Positions 18,274-47,967 of a stretch of DNA of 64,000 bases are shown one piece after another. Position numbers and translations under genes: made by a program. The stretch comes from Alloascoidea hylecoeti (Eukaryota), in contig BCKZ01000015.1 in NCBI GenBank assembly GCA_001600815.1, forward strand, positions 124,001 to 188,000, given 5' to 3'. Under the pieces are notes generated by a model, which worked only from the letters and a program-made list of their open reading frames with translations, was not told the DNA's origin and made no database searches. Positions within the stretch are counted from its first letter, which is position 1. Each line of letters opens with the position of its first letter.

Positions 18274-21200
18274 ATGTCCGATAAAAGGCCAAGGTCTAGC
18301 TCACTATTTGAGGAGGATTTCATTGAGGTCCCTATAAGTCCAAATGACGAAAACCTCCCTTCAACATCTAGAAATAACCCATTCCTGGTACTTCCAAGTA
18401 CTCATACTCCAAAACAACAAGTTTCTGATCTTAGAAGACTACAGGTGGACACGAATACAGGCAGACACGCACCATCTCCAAAATCTGCAAACAGTACAAA
18501 TGACCGTGGTCTCCCGTCTCCATATCTACCGAATTCTGGAGTATCTCCCGATGAAAGTTCTCGGGGTAGATTCAGATTCTCCCGTTCTCCATCTAGATCT
18601 CCTGTCAAAAGATTCAGTGCAGCATTCGTTCGAAGTATCTCACCTAAAAAGGGCTCTGATAGACTTTTTTCAGAACAGGAAGATTCATCTCCTACCGTCC
18701 CCGAACTTGTGAATCAACCGCTTTTGATGAAAGCTGCAGAAGGAGATTTAGATGCTATTAATGATGGATTAAATACTGCCCTAGGAACAGATGGTACTAG
18801 TATGGGACAATGGTTAAACACTGATCAATACCCTTCCTCAATACGAACTTCACGTTCTTTAAGGAATTCGAATATTCCACGAAACATATCACAGTCTCGA
18901 TCACCTAGCAAATCCCCAACTGTAAATGTATTCGTTACCAATAATGCACCTTATCCTAGTTTTGACACATCCTACAATTCCACACGAACACCCTCAAGAT
19001 CACCGTCTGAAGAAATAGATTTAGGTACCGATAGAAATAGTCAATCAATACCTTTAAAGAATTGGAACCTAAATACGAATGATTTACTGTCTGTGGTCGA
19101 AGATGGGAATGCGCAAGATGCATTATTATCACCAAGGAATAGTTCTCCAGCACGGCACCTATCCCTGGCTCTCAAAAATATATCTTCAAGAATTGTCAAA
19201 GGTACAAACGATTCCATACAACATCATTCATCTATTCGTTCAAATACTTCCCTAGTTCCTAAAATTTCTATAAACCCCTATGATGATGATAATAGCTCCT
19301 TGCCTAACAATAAAAGAGGTTCAGCACCTCCATTGTCTCCGAGTGTATCGTGTACTACTGGGTATTCTCTTCACGAGGAAACGGGTTTTCCTGGTAATGA
19401 GTCCACTAATAACCTTTCTATTCAAGAAGATGTACCTGAAGAACTTCCTTTATTTGGACGATCTTTAAGTTTCTTTGATGATAAGCATTCGGTTAGGGTA
19501 ACTCTTGCTAAACTAATTATGAATCCTTGGTTCGAACCAGTAGTGTTTTTTTCTATTATAATTCATACGATTGTATTGACCTACAGAGAATGGAGTCCAA
19601 GTACAACCTACAAATACACGCATTATGGTAAAAATTGGGTTGATTATATTATTCTGGCGATTAACTTATTTTATACAGTTGAAATTCTGGCTAAAATTAT
19701 TGTTTTTGGTCTTTGGGACGATAGAGAAATGTTTAAGGAACTTGGTCTTCATCGTGGATCCACATTTTCAAAATATTTCCAAACTAAAAAACAATCAGAA
19801 CAAAGTTATCAAATTGAAAAACCTATATCACATTCTTTTCATATCAAACAAAAGGTGGATAAAGAAGTAAATAATAAACAACGGAAAAGGGCATTTTTGA
19901 GAAATAGCTGGAATCGTGTGGATTTGACTTCAGTTCTAAGTTTTTGGCTATCCTTGTTTTTTTCAATTAACCACTTTGATGATAAGCATCACTTCTATGT
20001 ATTCAGAGCGCTTGGCTGTCTTAGAATATTAAGATTGGTAAATGTCACGCATGGAACTGTCGCAATTTTAAATAGCATGAAAGCAGCCGCTCCCTTCTTA
20101 ATAGATATGAGCATTTTCATGCTATTTTTCCTTGGCCTTTTTGGTATCATAGGTGTGCAGAGTTTTAAAAGTTCTTTTAGACGACAATGTATGTGGGTAA
20201 ACCCCGAAGACTCTCAGGACACTTATACGCATGAATTCCAATTTTGTGGGGGTTATTTAGCTATGGATTCATCTAATGAGATCCAAATGATGCCTTATTT
20301 GAATTCAGATGGAACTAGCTCTGGAATTATAAAAGGGTTTATGTGCCCGTTAAATTCGATCTGTCAAGTAAGTTATATGCCGCTTGAAAATCTCTGGTTA
20401 TATGTCTCTAACTCCATCATTTGTAGTCACGCGATAATCCTTATGGTGGTACAGTTTCTTTTGACAACTTTGTAAGTTTGATGACCGTTTTATAATGAAA
20501 TTTCAGTTTATAACAAAACTAATCAGTGAACTAGGCACATTCGTTTGAATTGGCTTTTGTTATTATGAGTCTGAATACATTTTCTGATTTGATGTATTAT
20601 ACAATGGATTCAGATAATACGACCGCGTGTCTATGTAAGTGCTTCAACATTGTAATTGTTTCTTTTACTGGTTTAATAACTAACTGCTTTTCCTAGTTTT
20701 CATGTTTGGGTATGTTATACTCAATTATAAACTGTTATGTACTTACTAACCGATTTCTCTAGAATAATTTTCCTTGGTGTATGGATCATGAACTTATTTA
20801 TTGCTGTGATTGTATCAGGTTTCAAAATTACTAGAGACGAAATGAGATCAGCCGCTCCAATGAACCTGCTGAGGAAATCTCTACGAAGGCAGAAGCTTAA
20901 GACAAAGAAGAAACCTAGCCCTTTACTCAAACTTTATTTCAAGACATCTTGGATTTGGCTGGTGTTCATAACCATTAGTCTTATTACTCAGTGCTTCCGT
21001 ACTTCTACAATAAGTGAAGAATACAGCCAACGACTATTACTTATAGAACTTTTTGTTACTTATGTTCTCTGTCTAGAGATTTTGTTAAGGATTTTCAGTT
21101 ATCTTCCGGACTGGAGATCTTTCTATCTTGAAAAGAGAAATATTTTTGATTTATTCCTGGCGATTATAACAGGAATTATTGCTATTCCCCATATCAGGAA

Positions 21201-24200
21201 AACTTTAGGTCATGCTTATTACTGGCTTTCGGTTTTTCAAATCGTTAGGTTCTATAGAATTGTTCTTGCAATTCCATTTGCACGAACTTTATGGAGAAAA
21301 GTATTGGGAAATGTTAAAAGCATTGCTAATTTATCATTCTTCTACATCTTAATAACTTTTTTGTGCAGTATCATCACATCAGTATATTTTACTAGGTTAT
21401 ATGACGAGGATGAAATTCAAAATAATTTCATTTCATTTTACACTCTACCAAATACATTTGTGGGACTTTATCAAATATCTAGCACAGAAAACTGGACTAC
21501 CATATTATACGGCATGCAAGAAGCCACATCATCAAGGCAAGCTAAAGTTTTTGGCGCCATTCTTCTGGTTCTCTGGTTTGTCTTATCTCAAAACATTGTA
21601 TTAAATATTTTTATCGCTGTCATTGCAGAGAATTTGGAGGTAACAGAGAAAGAAAAAAAAAGACAACAGGTCAAACAATTTATGATCAGTTTTTCAAGAA
21701 AATTGAAAGCTATACCGGAGGAGTCCGTTCTCTCAAGAATGAAAAACCGAGTGTTTAAAAGGAAACCCAGTGAAGCCCATAATCAGGCAGCCATTAATCT
21801 TCTTCTAAATGGTCTCGCAGTAAATGACTTTTTGAAAGGTGAACAGCATGATGAAAATGATTTGGATACCAAAGATAGTAATGGGGAAAACATTTTTCAA
21901 CTCACTTCATCCTGGAAGAGGCTCTTTTCACCTCATCATTGGAAAAGCTATACTATGTTTTCCATTATAGGAAATCCATTTTATCGACCAAAAAAAGATA
22001 CTGCTGCTAAAACTTTTATTAATCCTTCAACATTAATGCAAGATGTTGTAAAAGAAAATGCTAATATGGCTGCTGATAGGAATAAATACCTCAAGAACAA
22101 CCCAAACTTCAATGTAGTTTTGTGGTTATTTCCTCCGAAGCATCCATTACGTCGGCTTTGCCAACTAATTGTTAGACCCAGTACTGGTAATAATAGAAAA
22201 GATGGTGTGTATCCCAATAAGAGAGTCAGAGAAGCATTTTCAGTCTTTATGTTTTGTGCAACTGTTGCTTTGGTAACTCTTGCCTGTATCACAACTCCAC
22301 TATATCGAATTAATAATGGCTTGAGCTATAGTATTTTCAATTGGACACTATATGTAGATATTGCTTTGTTGGGTATATTTAATCTTGAATTTTTGATAAA
22401 AGTTATTGCTGATGGATTTTTGCTGACGCCTAATGCTTACATGAGGTCATCATGGAATATATTTGATCTTATTGTTCTCATCACTCTTTGGATCAATTTT
22501 CTGGCAGTAATCCTTGGTTACGGCAAGCTTGCTAGAGCTGTTCGAGGTTTCAAGGCATTAAGAGCCCTGAGATTGTTAACAATAAGTGAGAGAGCAAAGA
22601 ACACTTTCCATAGCATCATAGTAGCCGGGGGAGGTAAAATTTTCGGTGCCGCTATGATTGCAATAACTTTGCTTTTTCCGTTTTCTATTTGGGGCCTTAA
22701 CGTTCTAAATGGGAGACTATCTCAATGCGTTGACAATAGTCTTTCCATTTCAGAATGCATTAATGAATATAATGCAGAGGTATTTAATTGGAACATCGTA
22801 AGTCCAACTTCTTGGGGAAATAGCTATTACGATTTTGATACTTTTTTTTCTTCATTTCAAATTTTCTTTGAAATGGTTTCTTTGGAAGGTTGGATCGATG
22901 TTTTACAAGCTGCATTTTATAGCACTGGCGTTGGTACACCTCAAGCATTTTTTGCTACTCCAATCAATGGTGTTTTTATTATGTTCTTTAACCTTGTTTC
23001 AACTGTTTTTATCTTGACGCTGTTCATTTCAGTAATCATCGACAATTACTCTAAAACTACAGGTTCAGCATACATGACCGATGAACAACGGTCTTGGTAT
23101 GAGATAGCAAAAGTTTTGAAATTGGAAAATCCATATAAACGCCCAACACTGGATAAGCTTAATATACTGCAAAGGTTTTGTTATAAGAATGCGGTTCTAA
23201 AACCTCCTATTTGGAGACATTCATTTGATATAGTTCTATGTATCCATGTTATTCTGTTGTTGTCAGAAAGCTTTCCTGAACATGATCGTGTAGACGACGC
23301 AAGATATATTTTATACATTGTTACATCTAGTGCTTTTCTTGTCTCCAATTTGATGAGACTAATTGCCTTAGGACCTAAAAGATATTTCACAAATAAGAGA
23401 AATATTTTTGAGTCGGCGATTATCACAGGTGCTTTTGTGATGTCTGTATGTTCTTTTTTTATATCGAGAGATACTTATTTTGCGAATTTTAACAAATTGT
23501 TCCTACTCGGAATTTTATTTTTAATTATTCCCAGAATTGGAAAATTGGATCAATTAATGAAAACTGCAACGGCAAGCTTGCCGTCAATTATTTCTTTACT
23601 GTTTACTTGGGCCGTTTTGTTTTTAGTTTGGGCTATAGCTATGAATCAAATATTTGGTCTCACCAAGATTGGTTCCAATGGTTCCGGGAACATCAATTTT
23701 AGGACAGTACCCAAAGCTCTAATAGTGCTCTTCAGGATGAGTTTTGGTGAAGGATGGAATGACATTATGTTTGATTATATGGTCGAATCGCCAAATTGCA
23801 TTGATTCTGATGATATTGATTCCACAGATTGTGGTAGTAGGCCTTGGGCGTATCTCTTATTCGTTTCGTGGAATATTATTAGCATGTATATTTTTCTTAA
23901 TTTGTTTGTTTCTTTGATTACAGAGAGTTTTCGTTATGTCTATCAGCATTCTGGTTTAAGATCTAGTTTGACTCATTCCGAAATTCAAAAATTTAAAGAA
24001 GAATGGCACAAATTTGATGAAAATGGAACAGGATATATTGAACCGTCAGAGCTTCCGACTCTCCTAAGAAATATCGATGGAGTCCTTTCTTTTAAAATCT
24101 ATGATGGGGTGTTATCGGTGAAAGAGCTGGAAAAAAGGTGGTTCATTAGAAAATCTAATGATCCATATGATGTTGTAAGCCATGAAGCTATCAAAGATTC

Positions 24201-25059
24201 GCTTTCCTCGAGTGATATCGAAGCGGTTAGGACACAACGAGCATTATATGAAAGGTTTATCGAGGAGGCGCTATTGAAGATGGAGCTGGCCAATGAACCT
24301 GGTATATCTTTTACCAATGTTTTATTGCAGATTCCTTTATACAATATGTTTGATGAAACTAATTGCCTGAAGCTTGAAGACTTTTTAGAAAGGCATTTAC
24401 TAACCCGAAAGGTTAAAAAGAGGTTACAGGATAAGCGTGTGTTGAGTGCAATTAGAACTATATCATGCAGATTTAAATATCTCCATAACAGAGATATTAC
24501 CGATCAAGTGGCTGAGAGTTATTTACCCATTAATATAAACAAAAGAAAACCTATTTTAAGAATCAAAACAGATACGTTTAATCCAACAATCACAGTGTCG
24601 GGTTACAAGGATGAAATATCAAAAGATGATAATACGATGGAATATACCAATACACTTACCATTAGTACTAGTCCTTACATTCCTAAAAGATCACAGAAGC
24701 CCTATAATTTCAGTCAATCTCATAGTCGATCCAGATCTAGAACAAAAGGTATAAGTTACTCAAATGGGAATGAAGTTGGTTTCCCGTACACCCCTTTAAT
24801 ATCGACGGGAGCGTCCATGCGGTGGACAGAAACCGATTATGAGCCAGTTAACTATTCGAATGATGTTGAAGAAGCGAATGACTCTTTTTATAAGGGCAGT
24901 CGCTCAGGATCCAGAGTAGATAACATTGGCCATTCTGATTATTCGTTGATGGAATCTGGGGATCTATCTACCTTAAATTCACGTCTTGAAAATTCGGCTT
25001 GGGGCGATGCCATTGACTGGGTCCAAGAAAATAAACATAAATTTAAAGAAGATACATAA
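18274..25059 (+). CDS. CCH1: Four-domain high-affinity calcium channel Cch1; exons 18274-20367, 20427-20471, 20535-20634, 20697-20709 and 20763-25059
   Basis: Four GT-AG introns restore a continuous frame (CQ|SRDNPYGGTVSFDNF|AHSFELAFVIMSLNTFSDLMYYTMDSD...). Pore loops are SLNTF/STENW/SLEGW/FGEGW (N-E-E-E), with S4 RxxR repeats and a C-terminal EF-hand-like segment. Confidence 0.93.
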
Positions 25060-29854: not shown

Positions 29855-31642
29855 ATGGGAAGCAAAGAAAAGGAAAAAGAAATCGTCGCCCGTTCTTTGG
29901 CAGCAGTCGTAGATATTGGCTCCAATGGGGTTCGCTTTAGTATATCTTCTTTGGCTTCTCATCACGTTAGAATCATCCCCTGTGTTTATCAGGATAGATT
30001 AAGTATCTCGTTGTTCGATGCACAGTACTCCGTCTCCGTGAAAGAGCAAAAGAAGAATCAAACACACAAAGAAGATGACAAATCCGATTTCACAATTGAA
30101 AAACAGCCGATTGATCCCAGTGTGATCGATGAAATCATCTACGGTATGAAGAGATTTGCTCTCGTCTGTAAAGACTTTGGGGTGGCTGCTAGCTCAGTAC
30201 AGGTCGTTGCTACTGAAGCAACTCGAGAAGCTTCCAATTCCGCACAATTTAGAGAAAGAATATTACAAGAAACGGGTTGGGAAGTTAAACTTCTCACCAA
30301 AGTGGAAGAAGGGACCATTGGTGCATATGGGGTCGCATCCTCTTTTTATAACATCTCCGGTCTTTTTCTTGACCTTGGAGGTGGTAGTACTCAACTCTCC
30401 TGGATCATAAACAAAAATGGATCCTTAAAAATGTCAAATTCCCCCGTTTCTTTACCATATGGAGCTGCTGCTTTAACTCTACGACTACAAAACGAAAACA
30501 AAAGAGATCTAAGAGATGAAATTCAACTGGCAATGGAAAATGCTGTTTCCTCAATTAATATTCCAGAAGAATTAAGAAGGCAATCTGAAGAGCAAGGTGG
30601 TTATGATCTATTAGCATGTGGTGGTGGATTCAGAGGGTTTGGTCATCTGTTATTAGCTGATTCTGACGATTATCCAATTCCTTCTGTTATTAACGGATTT
30701 TCGACATCAGGTGAAAAATTCCATGATTTAGCAACATATCACTATATAAAAACTGGAAATAAATACACGGGGTTCGACAAAAAGAAGGTATTTCGAGTTT
30801 CAGAAAGACGAGCCAAACAATTACCTGCTATATCATTATTGATATGCGCAACTCTTGAAGCCCTTCCAAAGATTAAAAATGTGAAATTCGCTCAAGGAGG
30901 TGTTAGAGAAGGTGTTATCTACAAAGATTTACCAAATGATATTAAAAATCAAGATCCATTGATTATTGCCACACAACCTTATGGTCCACTTTTATCTCAA
31001 AAATATCTTGATTTACTATTGGGTGCTATTCCCACAAATGCTCCATCTGAAATTAGAGAAAGATTGGCTCCGGCACTTGTTAATGTTGCCTTTGTCCATT
31101 GCTCATATCCAAAAGATCTCCAGTCTTCGGCTGCTCTTTATATAGCAACTACAGGGATCATTTCAGGTACTTATGGTTTGACTCATCGAGATAGAGGCTT
31201 AATTGGACTTGCACTTTGTGAAAGATGGGGAGGCGAGTTACCTGAAGCTGACAAAAAGGTACGATCTGCTATTTGCAAAATGATTAGCGGTTCAAATACA
31301 GATGATAATTCTGATTGGTGGGCCAGATATTGTGGGAAATTGATGCATGTTATTTGTGGTGTTTATCCTGGTGGGAATGTTCATGAAGGTTCACTAACTT
31401 TGAAACTTGTCGAGAATGACAATGGTTTTTCTATTACATCTAGCCCTAGAAAATTTAAAAATGTTTCTTTGAAACTGAAAATAGAGACTGAAGATAATGA
31501 TTTCAGAACTGCTTCGTATAGTGTGCGAAGTCGAATCCAATCTTTAGAGAAGAAGCTGAAGAAAATATCTAAAGGTAGCTCAACTGAAGGGAAAATCAAG
31601 GTAGACGTATTATTAAATAAAGTTAACTCAGACTCTAAATAA
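29855..31642 (+). CDS. RTG2: Retrograde signalling protein Rtg2 (Ppx/GppA-like ATPase fold)
   Basis: AVVDIGSNGVRFSI, ATEATREA, DLGGGSTQLSW, SLPYGAAAL, GGGFRG, FRVSERRAKQLPA, GGVREG. First ATG is at 29855. Confidence 0.93.
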   Translation: MGSKEKEKEIVARSLAAVVDIGSNGVRFSISSLASHHVRIIPCVYQDRLSISLFDAQYSVSVKEQKKNQTHKEDDKSDFTIEKQPIDPSVIDEIIYGMKRFALVCKDFGVAASSVQVVATEATREASNSAQFRERILQETGWEVKLLTKVEEGTIGAYGVASSFYNISGLFLDLGGGSTQLSWIINKNGSLKMSNSPVSLPYGAAALTLRLQNENKRDLRDEIQLAMENAVSSINIPEELRRQSEEQGGYDLLACGGGFRGFGHLLLADSDDYPIPSVINGFSTSGEKFHDLATYHYIKTGNKYTGFDKKKVFRVSERRAKQLPAISLLICATLEALPKIKNVKFAQGGVREGVIYKDLPNDIKNQDPLIIATQPYGPLLSQKYLDLLLGAIPTNAPSEIRERLAPALVNVAFVHCSYPKDLQSSAALYIATTGIISGTYGLTHRDRGLIGLALCERWGGELPEADKKVRSAICKMISGSNTDDNSDWWARYCGKLMHVICGVYPGGNVHEGSLTLKLVENDNGFSITSSPRKFKNVSLKLKIETEDNDFRTASYSVRSRIQSLEKKLKKISKGSSTEGKIKVDVLLNKVNSDSK

Positions 31643-31990
31643 GATAAAGGATTGATTGAAATTGTTATTTGTAAATTAATCATGAACTGTACGGTTAACT
31701 ATATCTTCGTATTCTTTTATATATATGGTAAAGTCATTGATCATGATAAAACCCTTAAACTCGATAAAACATATTAATATTTTATTATAATCTATTTAAC
31801 TTATGACTTAATATTATTGTTATATTATCATCTCTCTAAATACAGTTTTATTTAGCCTAAAAATTCCGAATAAATACATACTAAAGTGACGAAATAGGCT
31901 CTCGAGTATGGCTAAATCAGAGTGAACAAATTGTATACCAGTAGAACATTAATATGTAATTGAAAATTATTTACATTTAAAATATATATA

Positions 31991-32320
31991 TTTTTTTCTC
32001 TATTAACCATTATCATGATATTTTCCAAATCTTTAGATTTTTCTACCTGTACCACGGTACCGTTATAGCTATCTATATCGCTACATCTTCTATGTACTTG
32101 TATATTCCAAAGAATTTCAGATATATCAACTCTTTAATTAATGAATGAACGACTTTGTATATTCGGATGAATTAAATCTTCCAAAGTTGTTATATCCCTA
32201 CTAATTTGATGAATACCATCCTCTTAATTAAAAATGTGTTCTTCTGTTTCTATACTTGGTTGTAAACACAGTATGCATTTAGTGAACCATTCAAATTTTT
32301 GTTTGATTTAAAATCCCTGT
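31991..32320 (-). mobile_element. Degenerate 3' fragment of a non-LTR (L1-clade-like) retrotransposon, copy 2
   Basis: Minus strand reads TKCILCLQPSIETEEHIFN*...TTLEDLIHP...N*RVDISEILWNIQVHRR, with two in-frame stops. It is clearly paralogous to copy 1 and ends at a short A7 tract (T run 31991-31997). Boundaries are approximate. Confidence 0.65.
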
Positions 32321-32335
32321 GATGTGAATAATTCC

Positions 32336-33045
32336 TTTTTTTTTATTTTATTTTATCATTTTATTATAAATTTAAACGTAAGTATAGAATTATTTAAAAG
32401 TGTTATACCTTGACGGTACAACAATGTCTGTTTTGTATTTATTTATATCTAAGAATCAGTTTCCGTCGTTCAATATTTGCTAAATGAACAATAGCATCTG
32501 AGTCTATTTTGGGATCACATGAGTTGAATCTCCTGTTTACTCGCATCTGCCATAAAATCTCTGAAATTAGGCTTAGATTTTGAATTATTTTAGTATTTTT
32601 ATACGTTGGGCATATCAAGTCATCCAAACTTATATCTTTACCTAAGAAGTGTAAGAAAATTGTTCTTTTTGTTTGAAAATTATTGAAAACATGATCTTCT
32701 GTATTGATCCTTGGTTGTAGGCAAAGAATACACTTATTCATATTACCATTTTTATGATCACTTAAGGTAAGACCTCCAGTAATGTGTAGTGTCGGAGATT
32801 TAGTCTATGAATAAAATCTACCGACCCTGGTTCTTCCCTATTGATCCTATGTAAGAGCAGCCACCATTCTTACCAGTCCTGTGTGCTACGTTCTTTGATT
32901 TGTCTAGTTGGAAAATTAGGAATGATCGGTTGATCATCCATTTGCTGATAGTATCTTGATGCCGCTCTTCTGAACGCTCTGATTTCTATTGGTTTCTCAT
33001 CATGAGTTGTAACATTACTGCTAAAAAGAGAAGAAACAAGTGTTA
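32336..33045 (-). mobile_element. Degenerate 5'-truncated 3' fragment of a non-LTR (L1-clade-like) retrotransposon, copy 1
   Basis: QDW*EWWLLLHRINREEPGSVDFIHRLNLRHY [frameshift] NKCILCLQPRINTEDHVFNNF...SLDDLICP...ISEILWQMRVNRR fits the zf-RVT/CCHC end of ORF2. Stop at 32441-32439, about 95 nt of 3' UTR, then an A-rich tail (T9 at 32336-32344). The 5' boundary is approximate. Confidence 0.7.
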
Positions 33046-33062
33046 AATCTAAAAATGAAATC

Positions 33063-33134
33063 GGGCCGAGCTGGGAATTGAACCCAGGGCCACTCGCACC
33101 CAAAGCGAGTATCATACCACTAGACCACACGGCC
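33063..33134 (-). tRNA. tRNA-Pro(UGG), intronless
   Basis: GGCCGTGTGGTCTAGTGGTATGATACTCGCTTTGGGTGCGAGTGGCCCTGGGTTCAATTCCCAGCTCGGCCC folds as a cloverleaf with A box, B box (GGTTCAATTCC) and anticodon TGG; a T5 terminator follows a few nt downstream. Confidence 0.97.
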
Positions 33135-35748
33135 GAACATATAGTGGAACTATATTCTTCACGTGATGTCAGCAAATGCTCCCCTAAGTGGGGGGAATCT
33201 AATATCTAAAAACTTGAAATAGTAAAATATATCTAAAAAAAAAAAAAAAATTTACTTTAAAGGTGGTCTAGGTACATAAGAAGGGAAGAAGAAGAGTGTC
33301 AAGAATACACAAAAATAAGAAGAATAGAAAGAGAGGTTTTTATTTCACTATATATAGTAGAGATTTCCTCAGAATTTGTTTCTAGTTATATATATGAAAA
33401 GTTAAAAAAAAATTATTTAAAAGTTAAAATAAAAATTAATTCTGATGAAAAAAAAAACTAGGAAGTTAGCACAGCCAAATAAAGACTATTAGACGTATAT
33501 CATCTTGGTTGAGAAGCCATCACTAAAGTGCTTATGGTGAAAACATCTGGGGTGTTAGTAGGTATTTCTCGGGTCTAGAGGTAAAAACCGCTGCAGTTAT
33601 ATAGTGTTAAATCATGCCAGAGGGTTTCAGATCGATAAGAGATAAAATAATGATGTATGTAAACTTGAAAGAAAGAAAAGATTTAGAGAATCAAGTAAAG
33701 ATATATATTTTTATCCTAGTAATGGTGACGTAATATAAGGGAATTAATGTTGTAAAATCTCACAAAAAATATGAGCCTCATGGCATAGTTCTTCCATAGA
33801 CGTTTCAGTTCTATTGAATTGTCAACGGATTTAAAATATTACATTTAGCAAATGGGGGATGGTGAAAACTGTTCGTCGGATTCAAAGAAATAATTCTAGA
33901 CCTTTTATATGTAGTACCATGGTCAAATAATTATAACAGTTATTATTATAGGCATCCTCTTATAGATCACCATAATTTGTAATGCCTGATGCATGCTTCG
34001 ATAAGCTACATGTACAGATTTTTTTGTATACAACAGATCTCGTATATGCATAATCGAATTTCCCTCCCAGTTACGTATATTTCTCTCATTAACAATTGTC
34101 CTTGTGTTATATAAGATTGGACAAGATCAGATATATAAACGCTCAACTGTAATTACATTTTTTCCATCATATTTGCTCTACAGCCAGTTACTAGATTCTT
34201 GTGTTATAAGTAATTCTAGCGCAGAATATTTTTAAGCCTGGTAAAACGGTGGTATAAAATCTTAAGTGGGGATAAGACTGTGTACCCGAGCAACATCTAG
34301 TTGTATTTATAGGTTTCTATAATTGATAATTCAAAAGTTGAAAATTAACAAAATATAATTATGGTATTAGACGTAAAAATGCAATCAATGTGTATTTGAA
34401 CCTTCTGCCGATCATATCATCATAATATAAACCTAATTATAAAGAAAAAAAAGTAATACAATATTAATGGTAGTTTTTTTATCAACCCACGGCTATAATT
34501 AATCACCAATGCTTGGTTTTGATAAATACTAACAATCTTATAATGACATATCAAATATTATTAATGTCTCATCTATAATAGAAATAAATTTAATGTTTTG
34601 TAATTAAATATATGCATATTGATTGCATGTGTAGCAGGTACAGCTTTAAAAATATAAAACTAACGCTTCAACATTTTTAAGTTGTTTAAAAAAAGTTACG
34701 ATCGAAACCTCAATTGAAAGAGCATATACTTACGCGTATGAATATATCCAAGTACTAGTGTTTTATTCATTTCCAGCTTATATACACATATCATATCATA
34801 TGGCTGGAGTTGAGATTTGAAATATGCTCAACTTCTTTAAATATATAAACATCTTGGGTTTAGATAAATCTAGATCTTAATGCCCGTATAAAAATAACTT
34901 TACCTATAGCTTAGTTATAGCTCTATATTTACTTTAACATTACCGCCCACCAATGCCCATTAGTTTCATATAGAAGTTATATCTATAGCAACTTCAATCA
35001 ATAGGCTATGATACTTTAGAGGAGTTCAATAATGTTAAGGGTTGTAGTTAATTGTTTTGACTGATAAGCATAATCCATTAATGGTGATAGCTTCCATTTG
35101 AAATATGCCATCAACATTTACAAACAACGGTTGCTGATAAGTATTTATTATAAATACAATTATAAATGCAATTATATAAAAATGTTACATATTAATAATT
35201 ATAACTAATTAAGTGAAAAATAGTATTGGATTGCAATTACGCCGAACTTGACAAGTCTACATCAATTGTTAAGCTTGAACTTCGGATGATATCGTTGTGC
35301 TCGCTGTCTTGCAATAATCCAATCAATTATAAACCAAGTTAAAAAACGTTGAAACGGTAAAAATTTAAGGATAACATAAATTATGTACCACTTGTAGCTA
35401 CTAATCTGTTAGTATCACGATTAAATAAACAACGCTATAAAATTTTAAAAAAATCACTATAATATGCATGCAGAAGAGATGCAAAAAAAATCCGTTGAAT
35501 CATCATGCAGTGCCTAGTACGTACCAAGTAAAGTGTTTACATTACATATGAAGCTTTCTCCTCTTCATTTTTTTCTCACACTTTTTTCCTCCTATATTTA
35601 CGAATCATCATTTTCTCTTTGTAAAAAACATTGTGGTTTGAATTTTAATAGCAACTTCATAAACTTAGCATCATATGTCAATATTTGAAATCATCTACAA
35701 TAAAATATAAGTATACAAAATATCATATAAAAATCATATATCATTCAC

Positions 35749-46061: not shown

Positions 46062-47967
46062 TTATTTAGCACCAACTAATTTAGAAAAAGCTTCAGTTGA
46101 GAAAGATTTTGGTCTTTCAATTGGAGCACCAACAGCTCTATCAATAATTAATTGTGGTAAGACACCAAAAGCACGAGAAATACCAAACAAAACAGTATAA
46201 TATGAAGATTCAGTTAATCCGTAATATTGTAATAAAACACCAGAATGAGAATCCACATTTGGCCATGGGTTTTTAGTTTTACCATGTTTAGTTAAAACAC
46301 CTGGAGCAACTTCATAAATATCAGAAACAAGTTTAAATAAATCAAAATCAGGTAAATGTTTCAAAGCAAATTCACGTTGAGCAGTATATCTTGGATCAGT
46401 TTTTCTTAAAACAGCATGTCCATAACCTGGAACAACACGGCCAGAATTTAAAGTATCCCATAAGAATTTCTCAATATCAGCTTTTGTATAATTAGATGGA
46501 AGTTGACCCTTCATGTTTTGTAACCATTCTAAAACTTCTTGATTTGCACGTCCGTGTAATGGACCAGCAAGACCATTCAAACCAGCAGCTAAGGATAAAA
46601 ATGGAGAAGATAAAGCAGAGCCAACTAAATGAGTAGTATGGGCAGAAACATTACCACCTTCATGATCAGAATGGATTGTCAAATATAAACGCATCAAATC
46701 AACAAATTCTGCATTTGCACCATATCCAAGTAAAGAAGCTAAATTTTTACCATAATCAGCATTTGGATCTAAAGCAGCAACTTTACCATCTTTGAAAACA
46801 TTTCTATAAATTCTAGCAGCAATTGGAACCAATTTAGCTAAAAGATCAATTGAATCTTCATAAGCATAATTCCATAATTCTCTCTTATTAACACCTTTTT
46901 CATAAGCTTTTGCAAAAGCAGATTCAGATTCCAAAGCAGTAACACCAATGGAGAATTGTGCCATTGGATGTAAGTTTGTAGGAGATCTGTCCAATAATTC
47001 TTCAACATGGGCAGGTAATTGAGCTCTAGCAGCAAATTCAGCACTTAAAGCTTTAACTTGAGATTCAGTTGGGACTTCACCAGTTAATAATAACCAGAAA
47101 AGACCTTCAGGTAATGGTTCAGTTCCACCTGGAGCTCTAGGTAATTCAGCTTGAATTTCAGGAATAGTTTTACCTCTGAATCTAATACCTTCTTCAGAAT
47201 CTAAAACAGAACCTTCCCAAACAAGGCCTTTGATACCTCTCATACCACCATAGGCTTGTTCAAGTAAAACTTCACCGATAACCTAGACAAAAAGTAATAA
47301 ATTAGTCAACTGATAATTTTTCCATAATTAAAATATTTTTGTTAAGACTATTATAATTTGAACATACAGTTTTTCCGTAATCTTTCTTTAATTTTTTAAT
47401 TTCTTCAATTTTTTCTGGCAAAAGTTCAGCAAATCTTTCTTTTAAAGTCTAAAATATTAAAATAATATTGGTTAGTTTTACTATATTCGGAATTTGAAAC
47501 GTAATGCACGGGCCCATAAGAGGAAGGAACCGTTGAATCTCGTTACTCCATGATACATTTGATGAAAGTGAATCAAATAGAACAATGGAACAAAATCTAT
47601 AACTGACTCATTATTTTATATGACTATTCACAATAATCAATGTATGTAAACAGGCAATATTGAAAATAATGATAGATTTGCAATTGAGCAATAAAAATTC
47701 GTAAACAAACAAAAAAAAAGGGTGAAAAACGAAAAATGAAAAATGAGGAACAAAAAAGGAAAGATGAAGAGGAACAAGAGAGAAACTTCGGTGGATTTGA
47801 GAGATTCAAGGAAAACGTTGAGACAAAAGAAATTGAATACATACTGGCTCTTTAGCGGTAGAGTATGCTCTCAAAGTGTTGAAGGCAACAGAAGGAGCAA
47901 CTCTAATTGAAGAAGAAGCTGTGGCAGAAACTCTGGCAGAAACCCTGGTGGCTAAACGGAAAGACAT
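46062..47967 (-). CDS. CIT1: Mitochondrial citrate synthase; exons 47967-47845, 47448-47368 and 47282-46062
   Basis: Exon 1 is an Arg/Ser/Ala-rich presequence. [35 protein letters not shown] and PNVDSHSG are present; both introns start GTATGT and are phase 0. Confidence 0.97.

Follow-up and report, generated by a model that had tools for sequence, protein, structure and literature searches.

The classic example of retrotransposons settling in safe places next to genes transcribed by RNA polymerase III (Pol III) comes from budding yeasts. All the budding-yeast cases known to us are long terminal repeat (LTR) elements, and all of them sit on the upstream side of the Pol III gene. The present work concerns a 64,000-nucleotide stretch of the genome of Alloascoidea hylecoeti (GenBank assembly GCA_001600815.1, contig BCKZ01000015.1, positions 124,001 to 188,000 of the forward strand; this whole stretch is called the window, and all coordinates are given in its own numbering), in which two decayed pieces of non-LTR retrotransposons, or long interspersed nuclear elements (LINEs), lie one behind the other on the downstream side of a tRNA-Pro gene.

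According to the available portion of PMC5911963, with which that of PMC5006619 agrees, insertion downstream of tRNA genes is known only from dictyostelids. TRE3 of Dictyostelium discoideum is a tRNA-targeted L1-type LINE whose open reading frame 2 (ORF2) carries an apurinic/apyrimidinic endonuclease (APE), a reverse transcriptase (RT) and a zinc finger, and which ends in an oligo(A) tail (PMC5911963, PMC5006619, available portions). The non-LTR elements named in yeasts, in the accessible text of PMC4316626 and PMC3956500, are Zorro1-3 and Ylli; in addition, LINE matches of the repeat-masker type are listed in a Hanseniaspora genome paper (PMC6353571). Zorro3 is an L1-clade LINE of Candida albicans and, like Zorro1, Zorro2 and Ylli of Yarrowia lipolytica, a budding-yeast element of L1 type. 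The ORF2 of Zorro3 has an endonuclease, an RT and a C-terminal Cys-rich finger, and the element has a low copy number, poly(A)-type 3' ends and 5'-truncated copies (PMC1965478, PMC7175516, as far as their available text goes).

The Alloascoidea locus was likened to both systems by their descriptions. It shares with TRE3 the placement, tens of base pairs downstream of a tRNA gene and in the orientation of that gene, at one locus. The habit of TRE3, in the accessible descriptions, was shown over many copies and is B box-dependent, whereas here there are one locus and one ambiguous contig, in a fungal host. With Zorro3 the locus shares a predicted L1-type architecture and the features of low copy, A-rich 3' end (in the proximal piece) and 5' truncation listed above. 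It departs from Zorro3, which sits in poly-A tracts, flanked by A runs on either side, and is not associated with tRNA genes in the available part of PMC1965478, in that the younger of the two pieces has no A run at its 5' junction, its 3' flank being A-rich, and lies 41-45 nt behind a tRNA gene.

We read the locus, with a probability of about 0.8, as two dead, 5'-truncated 3' pieces of two diverged L1-type LINE lineages, arranged head to tail behind tRNA-Pro and independently inserted. Both elements would have been LINEs with an endonuclease-like N-terminus, an RT and a C-terminal CCHC (zf-RVT) region, and each piece would have been made by target-primed reverse transcription (TPRT) that stopped early. 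In this scheme the distal piece would have been the first to insert. A copy of the younger family would then have landed between the tRNA gene and the older piece, beyond the second of the two T5 runs that follow the tRNA gene, and its A-rich tail would for that reason now abut the truncated 5' end of the older piece. Both pieces would have decayed since, and neither is predicted to encode anything functional. The features of the locus, in the order in which they follow the tRNA gene, are as follows.

33063-33134, minus strand: tRNA-Pro gene, anticodon UGG, 72 nt (ARAGORN; Rfam RF00005, 59 bits, gathering score 29).
33018-33062, minus strand: spacer of 45 nt between the tRNA gene and the LINE, ending ...TTTTTAGCAG at the junction (sequence read).
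32439-33017, minus strand: proximal, probably younger LINE piece, the last ~192 ORF2 codons and the natural stop (alignments with the related proteins P0029, P0030, P0001 and P0003; loose end of a contig).
32374-32438, minus strand: 3' untranslated region (UTR) of the proximal piece, ~65 nt, between the natural stop and the end of the single-copy contigs (presumed boundary).
32337-32373, minus strand: A-rich tail of the proximal piece, consisting of AAATTTATAATAAAATGATAAAATAAAATA and then an A run, with A9 at 32344-32336 (sequence read).
31969-32336, minus strand: distal, probably older LINE piece, the last ~122 ORF2 codons of a diverged lineage, starting RNYSHH (tblastn with P0001, P0003 and P0004).
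31774-31968, minus strand: either the 3' UTR belonging to the distal piece or a short 3' fragment of a third element (31907-31774), both tentative; weak alignment, boundary uncertain.

The proximal piece was read in frame 1 over 33061-32873, with a stop at 32872-32870, and again over 32869-32765, after which the frame shifts. Frame 0 covers 32804-32442, encodes 121 aa containing KCILC...H...ISEILWQMRVNRR and runs up to a TAA; this codon (32441-32439) is the natural stop, since it aligns with the end of P0003. The defects of the piece were one internal stop (32872-32870) and a frame change near 32774-32782. In addition, its CCHC motif (KCILC...H...F) has lost the last Cys, the codon being TTT (Phe), as had been noticed in a preliminary description of this DNA. 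Where the window has its stop, other copies of the family have a sense codon, and they carry indels at 32774, 32780 and 32781, which indicates that the decay of the window copy postdates its insertion. P0001 aligned with the proximal piece at E=8e-29.

Although the open frame reaches 33061, the element itself starts at 33017 (+/-4, with a possible CA microhomology). P0029 (87% identity, 79 aa) and P0030 (91%, 35 aa), which are short NCBI contigs holding other copies of the proximal family, align with the window only from 33019 and 33016 downward, respectively, and nothing in the window corresponds to the residues that precede these points, which in P0030 number up to 80. Contigs of X3 depart from the window at 33017 and continue in sequence that translates to residues of P0029 and P0030. 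Since P0029, P0030 and the loose end of the contig all diverge there, 33017 is the 5' truncation point, 41-45 nt past the last base of the tRNA and 6 nt past the second T5 run. The proximal frame had been described as extending to within tens of base pairs of the Pol III terminator; this holds for the open frame, which continues to 33061, and not for the element, which occupies the sequence from 33017 onward. At the other end of the piece, the single-copy contigs of X1, X3 and X4 end at 32400-32403, that is, 30 nt into the repeat for k=31, and the tail lies in single-copy contigs that also cover the distal piece with 0-1 differences. The 5' truncation and the A tail that had been proposed for the proximal piece lie at 33017 and 32373-32337, respectively.

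The distal piece is in a poorer state. Its frames cover 32307-32227, then, after a stop, 32223-32137 and, after another stop, 32133-31915; in total it has at least three frame changes and two stops, and its Cys motif is broken by a stop. Both copies therefore carry the stops and frameshifts that had been reported for them. Homology begins at 32336, either the final A of the proximal A9 run or the base that follows it. At the 3' side, homology to the end of P0003 puts the limit of the coding part near 31969. The A7 run at 31997-31991 is inside the stretch that aligns with the C-terminus of P0003 (REKN in the window, REKD in P0003), and for this reason it is coding sequence and no tail. The preliminary statement that both copies are followed by an A tract accordingly stands for the proximal piece, with its A-rich tail and A9, and falls for the distal one. 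The distal coding part has a contig depth of 61 in X1, equal to that of the flanks.

The family was identified through relatives. A phmmer search of 1.84 billion representative proteins returned four proteins at E<=0.001, three of which are relatives: P0001 (126 aa, 52% identical), P0003 (78 aa) and P0004 (279 aa). The fourth, P0002, a repeat protein of 4032 aa in which query residues 3-42 were matched in 14 stretches, was dropped as spurious. The cluster of P0004 includes P0006, the start of which is the FADD motif of RT. P0013, a full-length relative with an ORF2 of 1283 aa, scored 105.2 bits with RVT_1 (cut-off 29.6), 25.7 bits with zf-RVT, just under the Pfam cut-off of 27.5, and 17.3 bits with Exo_endo_phos, a weak match below the cut-off of 24.5. 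P0014, 28% identical over 97% of P0013, has a precomputed PF03372 match, and PF03372 is found in 55-91% of the members of the nearest Atlas clusters, with the same domain set as the family. Full-length P0014 and P0015 are further relatives, followed by plant L1-like proteins with zf-RVT. Among solved structures, P0013 gave 10 matches, five to human LINE-1 ORF2p (125-128 bits) and five to R2-type proteins (48-58 bits). The best solved relative is human LINE-1 ORF2p (9k6g, 8uw3, 8sxt, 8c8j; E=3.6e-36, 128 bits), matched over the RT and its neighbourhood; it is a distant relative only, and the last ~190 codons, those present in the window, fall outside the PDB match. The RT domain of the relatives is of the non-LTR type; the window pieces, being truncated, lack it. 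Judged by these relationships, both pieces are the predicted C-termini of an APE-type, L1-like non-LTR (LINE) ORF2, in agreement with the preliminary description. The relatives behind this assignment are P0001, P0003 and the P0004/P0013 cluster, the cluster being the one that carries the RT and zf-RVT matches; the L1-like character is indicated by the ranking of the PDB matches and by the plant L1-like proteins. Of the features expected of TPRT, 5' truncation is seen in both pieces and an A-rich tail in the proximal one, with a target-site duplication at neither.

The two pieces are related to each other at some distance. When the 121 aa of the proximal piece were compared with the window by tblastn, the distal piece was matched at E=6.5e-13, the next best match having E=2.4. 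Two diverged paralogous peptides are thus present on the strand of tRNA-Pro, as first described. The DNA of the two pieces shares a single core of 55 nt that is 75% alike. Logan contigs of four runs were mapped to the window (4 of 4 runs mapped). Long single-copy contigs (X1, X3, X4) cover 30800-32403 with 0-1 differences, a span in which the distal piece lies together with the tail and, of the proximal 3' end, the first 30 nt. A contig of single-copy depth in X1 (record 6, 32950-33086) runs with 0 differences from the 5' end of the LINE through the spacer into the 3' end of the tRNA, and the tRNA-LINE junction is therefore real. Since both junctions are covered in this way by independent contigs, neither is an artefact of the assembly. 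Over the proximal piece the summed contig depth in X1 was 240-585 against 61 in the flanks, with many short variant contigs, a value that, according to the tool's own warning, is not a copy number. Taken together with P0029 and P0030, this depth indicates that the proximal family has several other copies. No copy at least 85% alike to the distal coding part was found among the contigs, and the distal linker before CxxC is, by eye, closer to P0001 than to the proximal family.

The two pieces are independent insertions of diverged lineages, because the nearest relatives of the proximal piece are dispersed copies and not its neighbour. A local tandem duplication of one insertion followed by divergence, the alternative raised in the preliminary description, would account for two adjacent pieces of the same ORF2 part on the same strand, but is extremely improbable and contradicted by the dispersed relatives (87-91% identical in protein, contigs 85-99% alike) against 44% identity over 75 aa with the neighbour, by the different 5' truncation points of the two pieces, and by the single-copy depth of the distal coding part against 4-10x for the proximal one. 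The distal piece appears to be the older insertion, given its larger number of defects per codon and the copy depth, and the proximal piece would later have landed between it and the tRNA gene. The independence of the insertions and the greater age of the distal one had both been proposed from the start; the first is borne out by the dispersed relatives, and the second is favoured by depth and decay.

Several points weigh against this reading of the locus, in addition to the warning on summed depth. No Pfam family was found in the six window peptides at E<=10. Family identity is settled all the same by the relatives, which carry RT and zf-RVT matches where Pfam is blind to the window peptides. 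The comparison with the zf-RVT profile suggested in the preliminary description thus gave nothing for the peptides themselves; zf-RVT is listed for 8 of the 10 relatives scanned, with the cut-off of 27.5 reached in three, P0004 (28.2), P0007 (29.2) and P0008 (29.4), and missed in five. No direct repeat links the spacer to the sequence behind either tail, and the earlier observation that neither piece has a target-site duplication is upheld. A clear A tail of the distal piece was not found in the sequence or the alignments, and its 3' end is uncertain. As to the order of insertion, no contig of X1, X3 or X4 skips either piece as an empty-site allele would, contigs being unable to prove absence. 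Lastly, all the contigs mapped there (X1, X3, X4) differ from the window at 32512, 32532, 32597, 32601, 32665, 32703 and 32764, and only 0.88 of the words of the stretch 32403-32800 are present in X1. For the proximal interior, the window may thus show a consensus that is collapsed or specific to a strain, and assembly noise could account for some of the defects.

The sequence behind the distal coding part deserves a separate description, as it bears on the choice of the site. The ~29 nt before 31771 weakly resemble the proximal 3' terminus (GTT(T)AAAT..TTATAATAAAAT; p=0.034, 1000 shuffles). For a third stacked fragment at 31907-31774, only these terminal 29 nt align by local alignment, and the proximal 3' end compared with 32010-31900 gave p=0.58 against shuffles. 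No decayed tRNA remnant was detected behind the distal piece, local alignment there doing no better than shuffles (p=0.68-0.93). Contig depth is 109 over 31736-31852, against 61, and one contig follows the window only to 31777 and then differs; one further genomic copy of about 31777-31860 exists. A contig of single-copy depth (X1 58.3, X4 10.8) joins sequence like 31860-31777 to tRNA-Pro: 20 letters (AATGAAGTAG + A10, in tRNA sense) are followed by tRNA-Pro from nucleotide 22 to its 3' end, and the contig maps to the window at 33113 and 31777. Its end reads TTATAATAAAATGA, a 14-mer identical to the terminus of the proximal piece. This contig may represent a second adjacency of a LINE 3' end and tRNA-Pro elsewhere in the genome, provided that a LINE does end at 31777-31860.

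It is possible, and we put it forward tentatively, that the tRNA gene itself chose the site. In such TRE3-like integration, the proteins of the element would read the Pol III complex and nick the DNA at a set distance behind the tRNA gene, with the element in the orientation of the tRNA; successive insertions might then strike one spot, older copies being pushed outward. The distance of 41-45 nt and the common strand fit the geometry of TRE3, 40-150 bp downstream and in the same orientation (PMC5911963, available portion). The 5' end of the younger piece lies on a unique spacer that is free of A tracts and its tail abuts the 5' end of the older piece, as re-insertion at a fixed distance predicts. 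The end of a unitig suggests that this spacer is common to no other tRNA-Pro locus beyond ~6 nt. The only LINE pieces of the window lie behind its only tRNA gene, tblastn with P0013-P0016 matching no other locus in the 64 kb. The probability that a random non-coding insertion falls within 50 nt behind the tRNA gene on the same strand is ~0.1% (50/27388/2), for a locus that was picked for that very adjacency. The contig described above, with its LINE-like end joined to tRNA-Pro, was not picked for its adjacency and is an independent, though ambiguous, hint in the same direction.

Against direction by the tRNA gene stands the fact that the argument is drawn from one locus. The second adjacency has a different geometry, the tail being joined inside the tRNA, and relies on the weak alignment at p=0.034. 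When metagenome contigs were scanned with P0013 and with the 121 aa of the window, pattern matches were returned and no relative; scans of genome contigs and of viral contigs had the same outcome. The 101-aa ORF formed by the tRNA, the spacer and the LINE 5' end found seven proteins, which by eye are two LINE copies and five tRNA-Pro read-throughs; none of the seven joins the tRNA and LINE parts. Zorro3, the yeast L1 element that has been studied, is not associated with tRNA genes in the available part of PMC1965478. Full-text searches of main texts outside the subscription literature, to which the original surveys of Zorro, Ylli and fungal non-LTR elements belong, brought up no LINE of a yeast or other fungus that is associated with the 3' flank of tRNA genes. 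Finally, the older copy could once have been longer and the younger one have gone into an A-rich run within it, target sequence being deleted in the process, in which case the coincidence of two insertions at the same nucleotide disappears.

This last possibility leads to integration directed by A tracts or tails, as for Zorro3 and L1 elements in general, which we put forward just as tentatively and regard as about equally probable. Here the nick would be made opposite an A-rich run and primed by the poly(A) of the RNA; the first piece would have entered a chance A run behind the tRNA gene, a flank that tolerates insertions, and the second would have re-used an A run at or inside the first. 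Zorro3, in the accessible text of PMC1965478 and PMC7175516, integrates only at poly-A tracts and re-uses them (3 pairs among 30 new insertions). At the younger 3' junction, an A9 run passes directly into the older piece. In X5, where a relative's copy is truncated at 32576, A11 is found 15 nt before the 5' end of that copy. Runs of A or T of at least 9 nt are few in the window (12 in 64 kb), and four of them are in the LINE/tRNA intergenic region. The younger 5' junction, however, reads ...TTTTTAGCAG/TAATG and has no A run, whereas all 19 of the 19 recovered 5' ends of Zorro3 began with at least 6 A (PMC1965478, same portion). If TPRT proceeds in its usual way, the T runs of the Pol III terminators would not lie on the strand that must provide the A tract for an insertion in this orientation. 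The A10 tail of the X1/X4 contig abuts tRNA nucleotide 22, where the tRNA has no A tract, and the position of the first insertion, 45 nt behind the tRNA gene, would be left to chance.

The pieces might also be LINE cDNA caught at DNA breaks in or near tRNA-Pro genes, with no target chosen by an endonuclease. tRNA genes are replication fork barriers and stall forks. Capture at breaks would explain the missing target-site duplications as well as the two geometries, since the LINE lies behind the tRNA gene in the window but within it in the X1/X4 contig. Endonuclease-independent insertions often lack a complete, tailed 3' end. The proximal 3' end is complete and has its tail, and random breaks would hardly place two insertions within the same few nucleotides, which makes this explanation unlikely. 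Plain chance takes up what is left of the odds after direction by the tRNA gene, direction by A tracts and capture at breaks.

Template switching by RT has a precedent in U6-L1 chimeras. A switch from LINE RNA onto pre-tRNA-Pro, which would make the tRNA here a retro-copy, would agree with the tRNA and the LINE being on one strand with the tRNA at the 5' side, and with the switching of Zorro3 to other RNAs in S. cerevisiae (PMC7175516, available text), but it is very improbable, given that a spacer of 45 nt with two T5 runs and AGCAG separates the tRNA from the LINE and that the spacer is unique and its bridging contig single-copy and unbranched, so that X1 presumably holds no source gene with the same trailer.

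Were the tRNA-directed explanation correct, an L1-type LINE family might aim ~45 nt behind tRNA genes in their orientation and be a fungal counterpart of TRE3 that arose independently. A yeast LINE behind tRNA genes would be a new, independent invention of tRNA targeting by an element that nicks and primes, in a host in which genetics is easy. It would also be the first budding-yeast retrotransposon known to make use of the flank downstream of Pol III genes. Should there be no targeting, the locus would still be a record of an L1-type LINE family of low copy number, for which the nearest relatives in the databases all lack names.

The window has a G+C content of 32.7% and a compact, fungal gene set, and its sole tRNA gene, tRNA-Pro(UGG), lies within an intergenic region of 4.1 kb. 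On the tRNA strand, two T5 runs in the spacer (33055-33051 and 33027-33023) are candidate Pol III terminators. The intergenic region is bounded by two genes:

31642: end of an RTG2 homologue.
35749: start of a ThrE-family gene.

Other genes of the window are Vps8 with a fungal RING finger, a citrate synthase, an ASE1-like gene and the TFIIIC B-block subunit. Upstream of the tRNA gene, the segment 33290-33392, 155-260 nt from the tRNA 5' end, has a summed contig depth of ~9069 against a single-copy value of 61 in X1, and of ~1075 against 7 in X3. This marks it as a repeat of very high copy number; it may be a solo LTR, or part of an LTR, left by an element with a preference for sites upstream of tRNA genes. 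Another segment, 33466-33552, is at 4-8x the single-copy level. The A/T runs of at least 9 nt in this intergenic region are at 33235-33250 (an A16 run ~100 nt upstream of the tRNA), 33404-33412 and 33448-33457, the fourth being the LINE tail. Elsewhere in the window, the citrate synthase ORF (46062-47243, minus strand) contains no CTG codon, so that it carries no information on CTG usage in the host. Its alignment with citrate synthases of solved structure begins only near residue 84 of the latter, the first ~80 codons, including the targeting peptide, being in an upstream exon or missing. Two adjacent ORFs on the plus strand, 18274-20475 and 20737-25059 (733 and 1440 aa), contain Ion_trans in one and three stretches, respectively; separated by ~260 nt that could be an intron or mark a broken gene, they resemble the halves of a four-repeat calcium channel of the Cch1 type.

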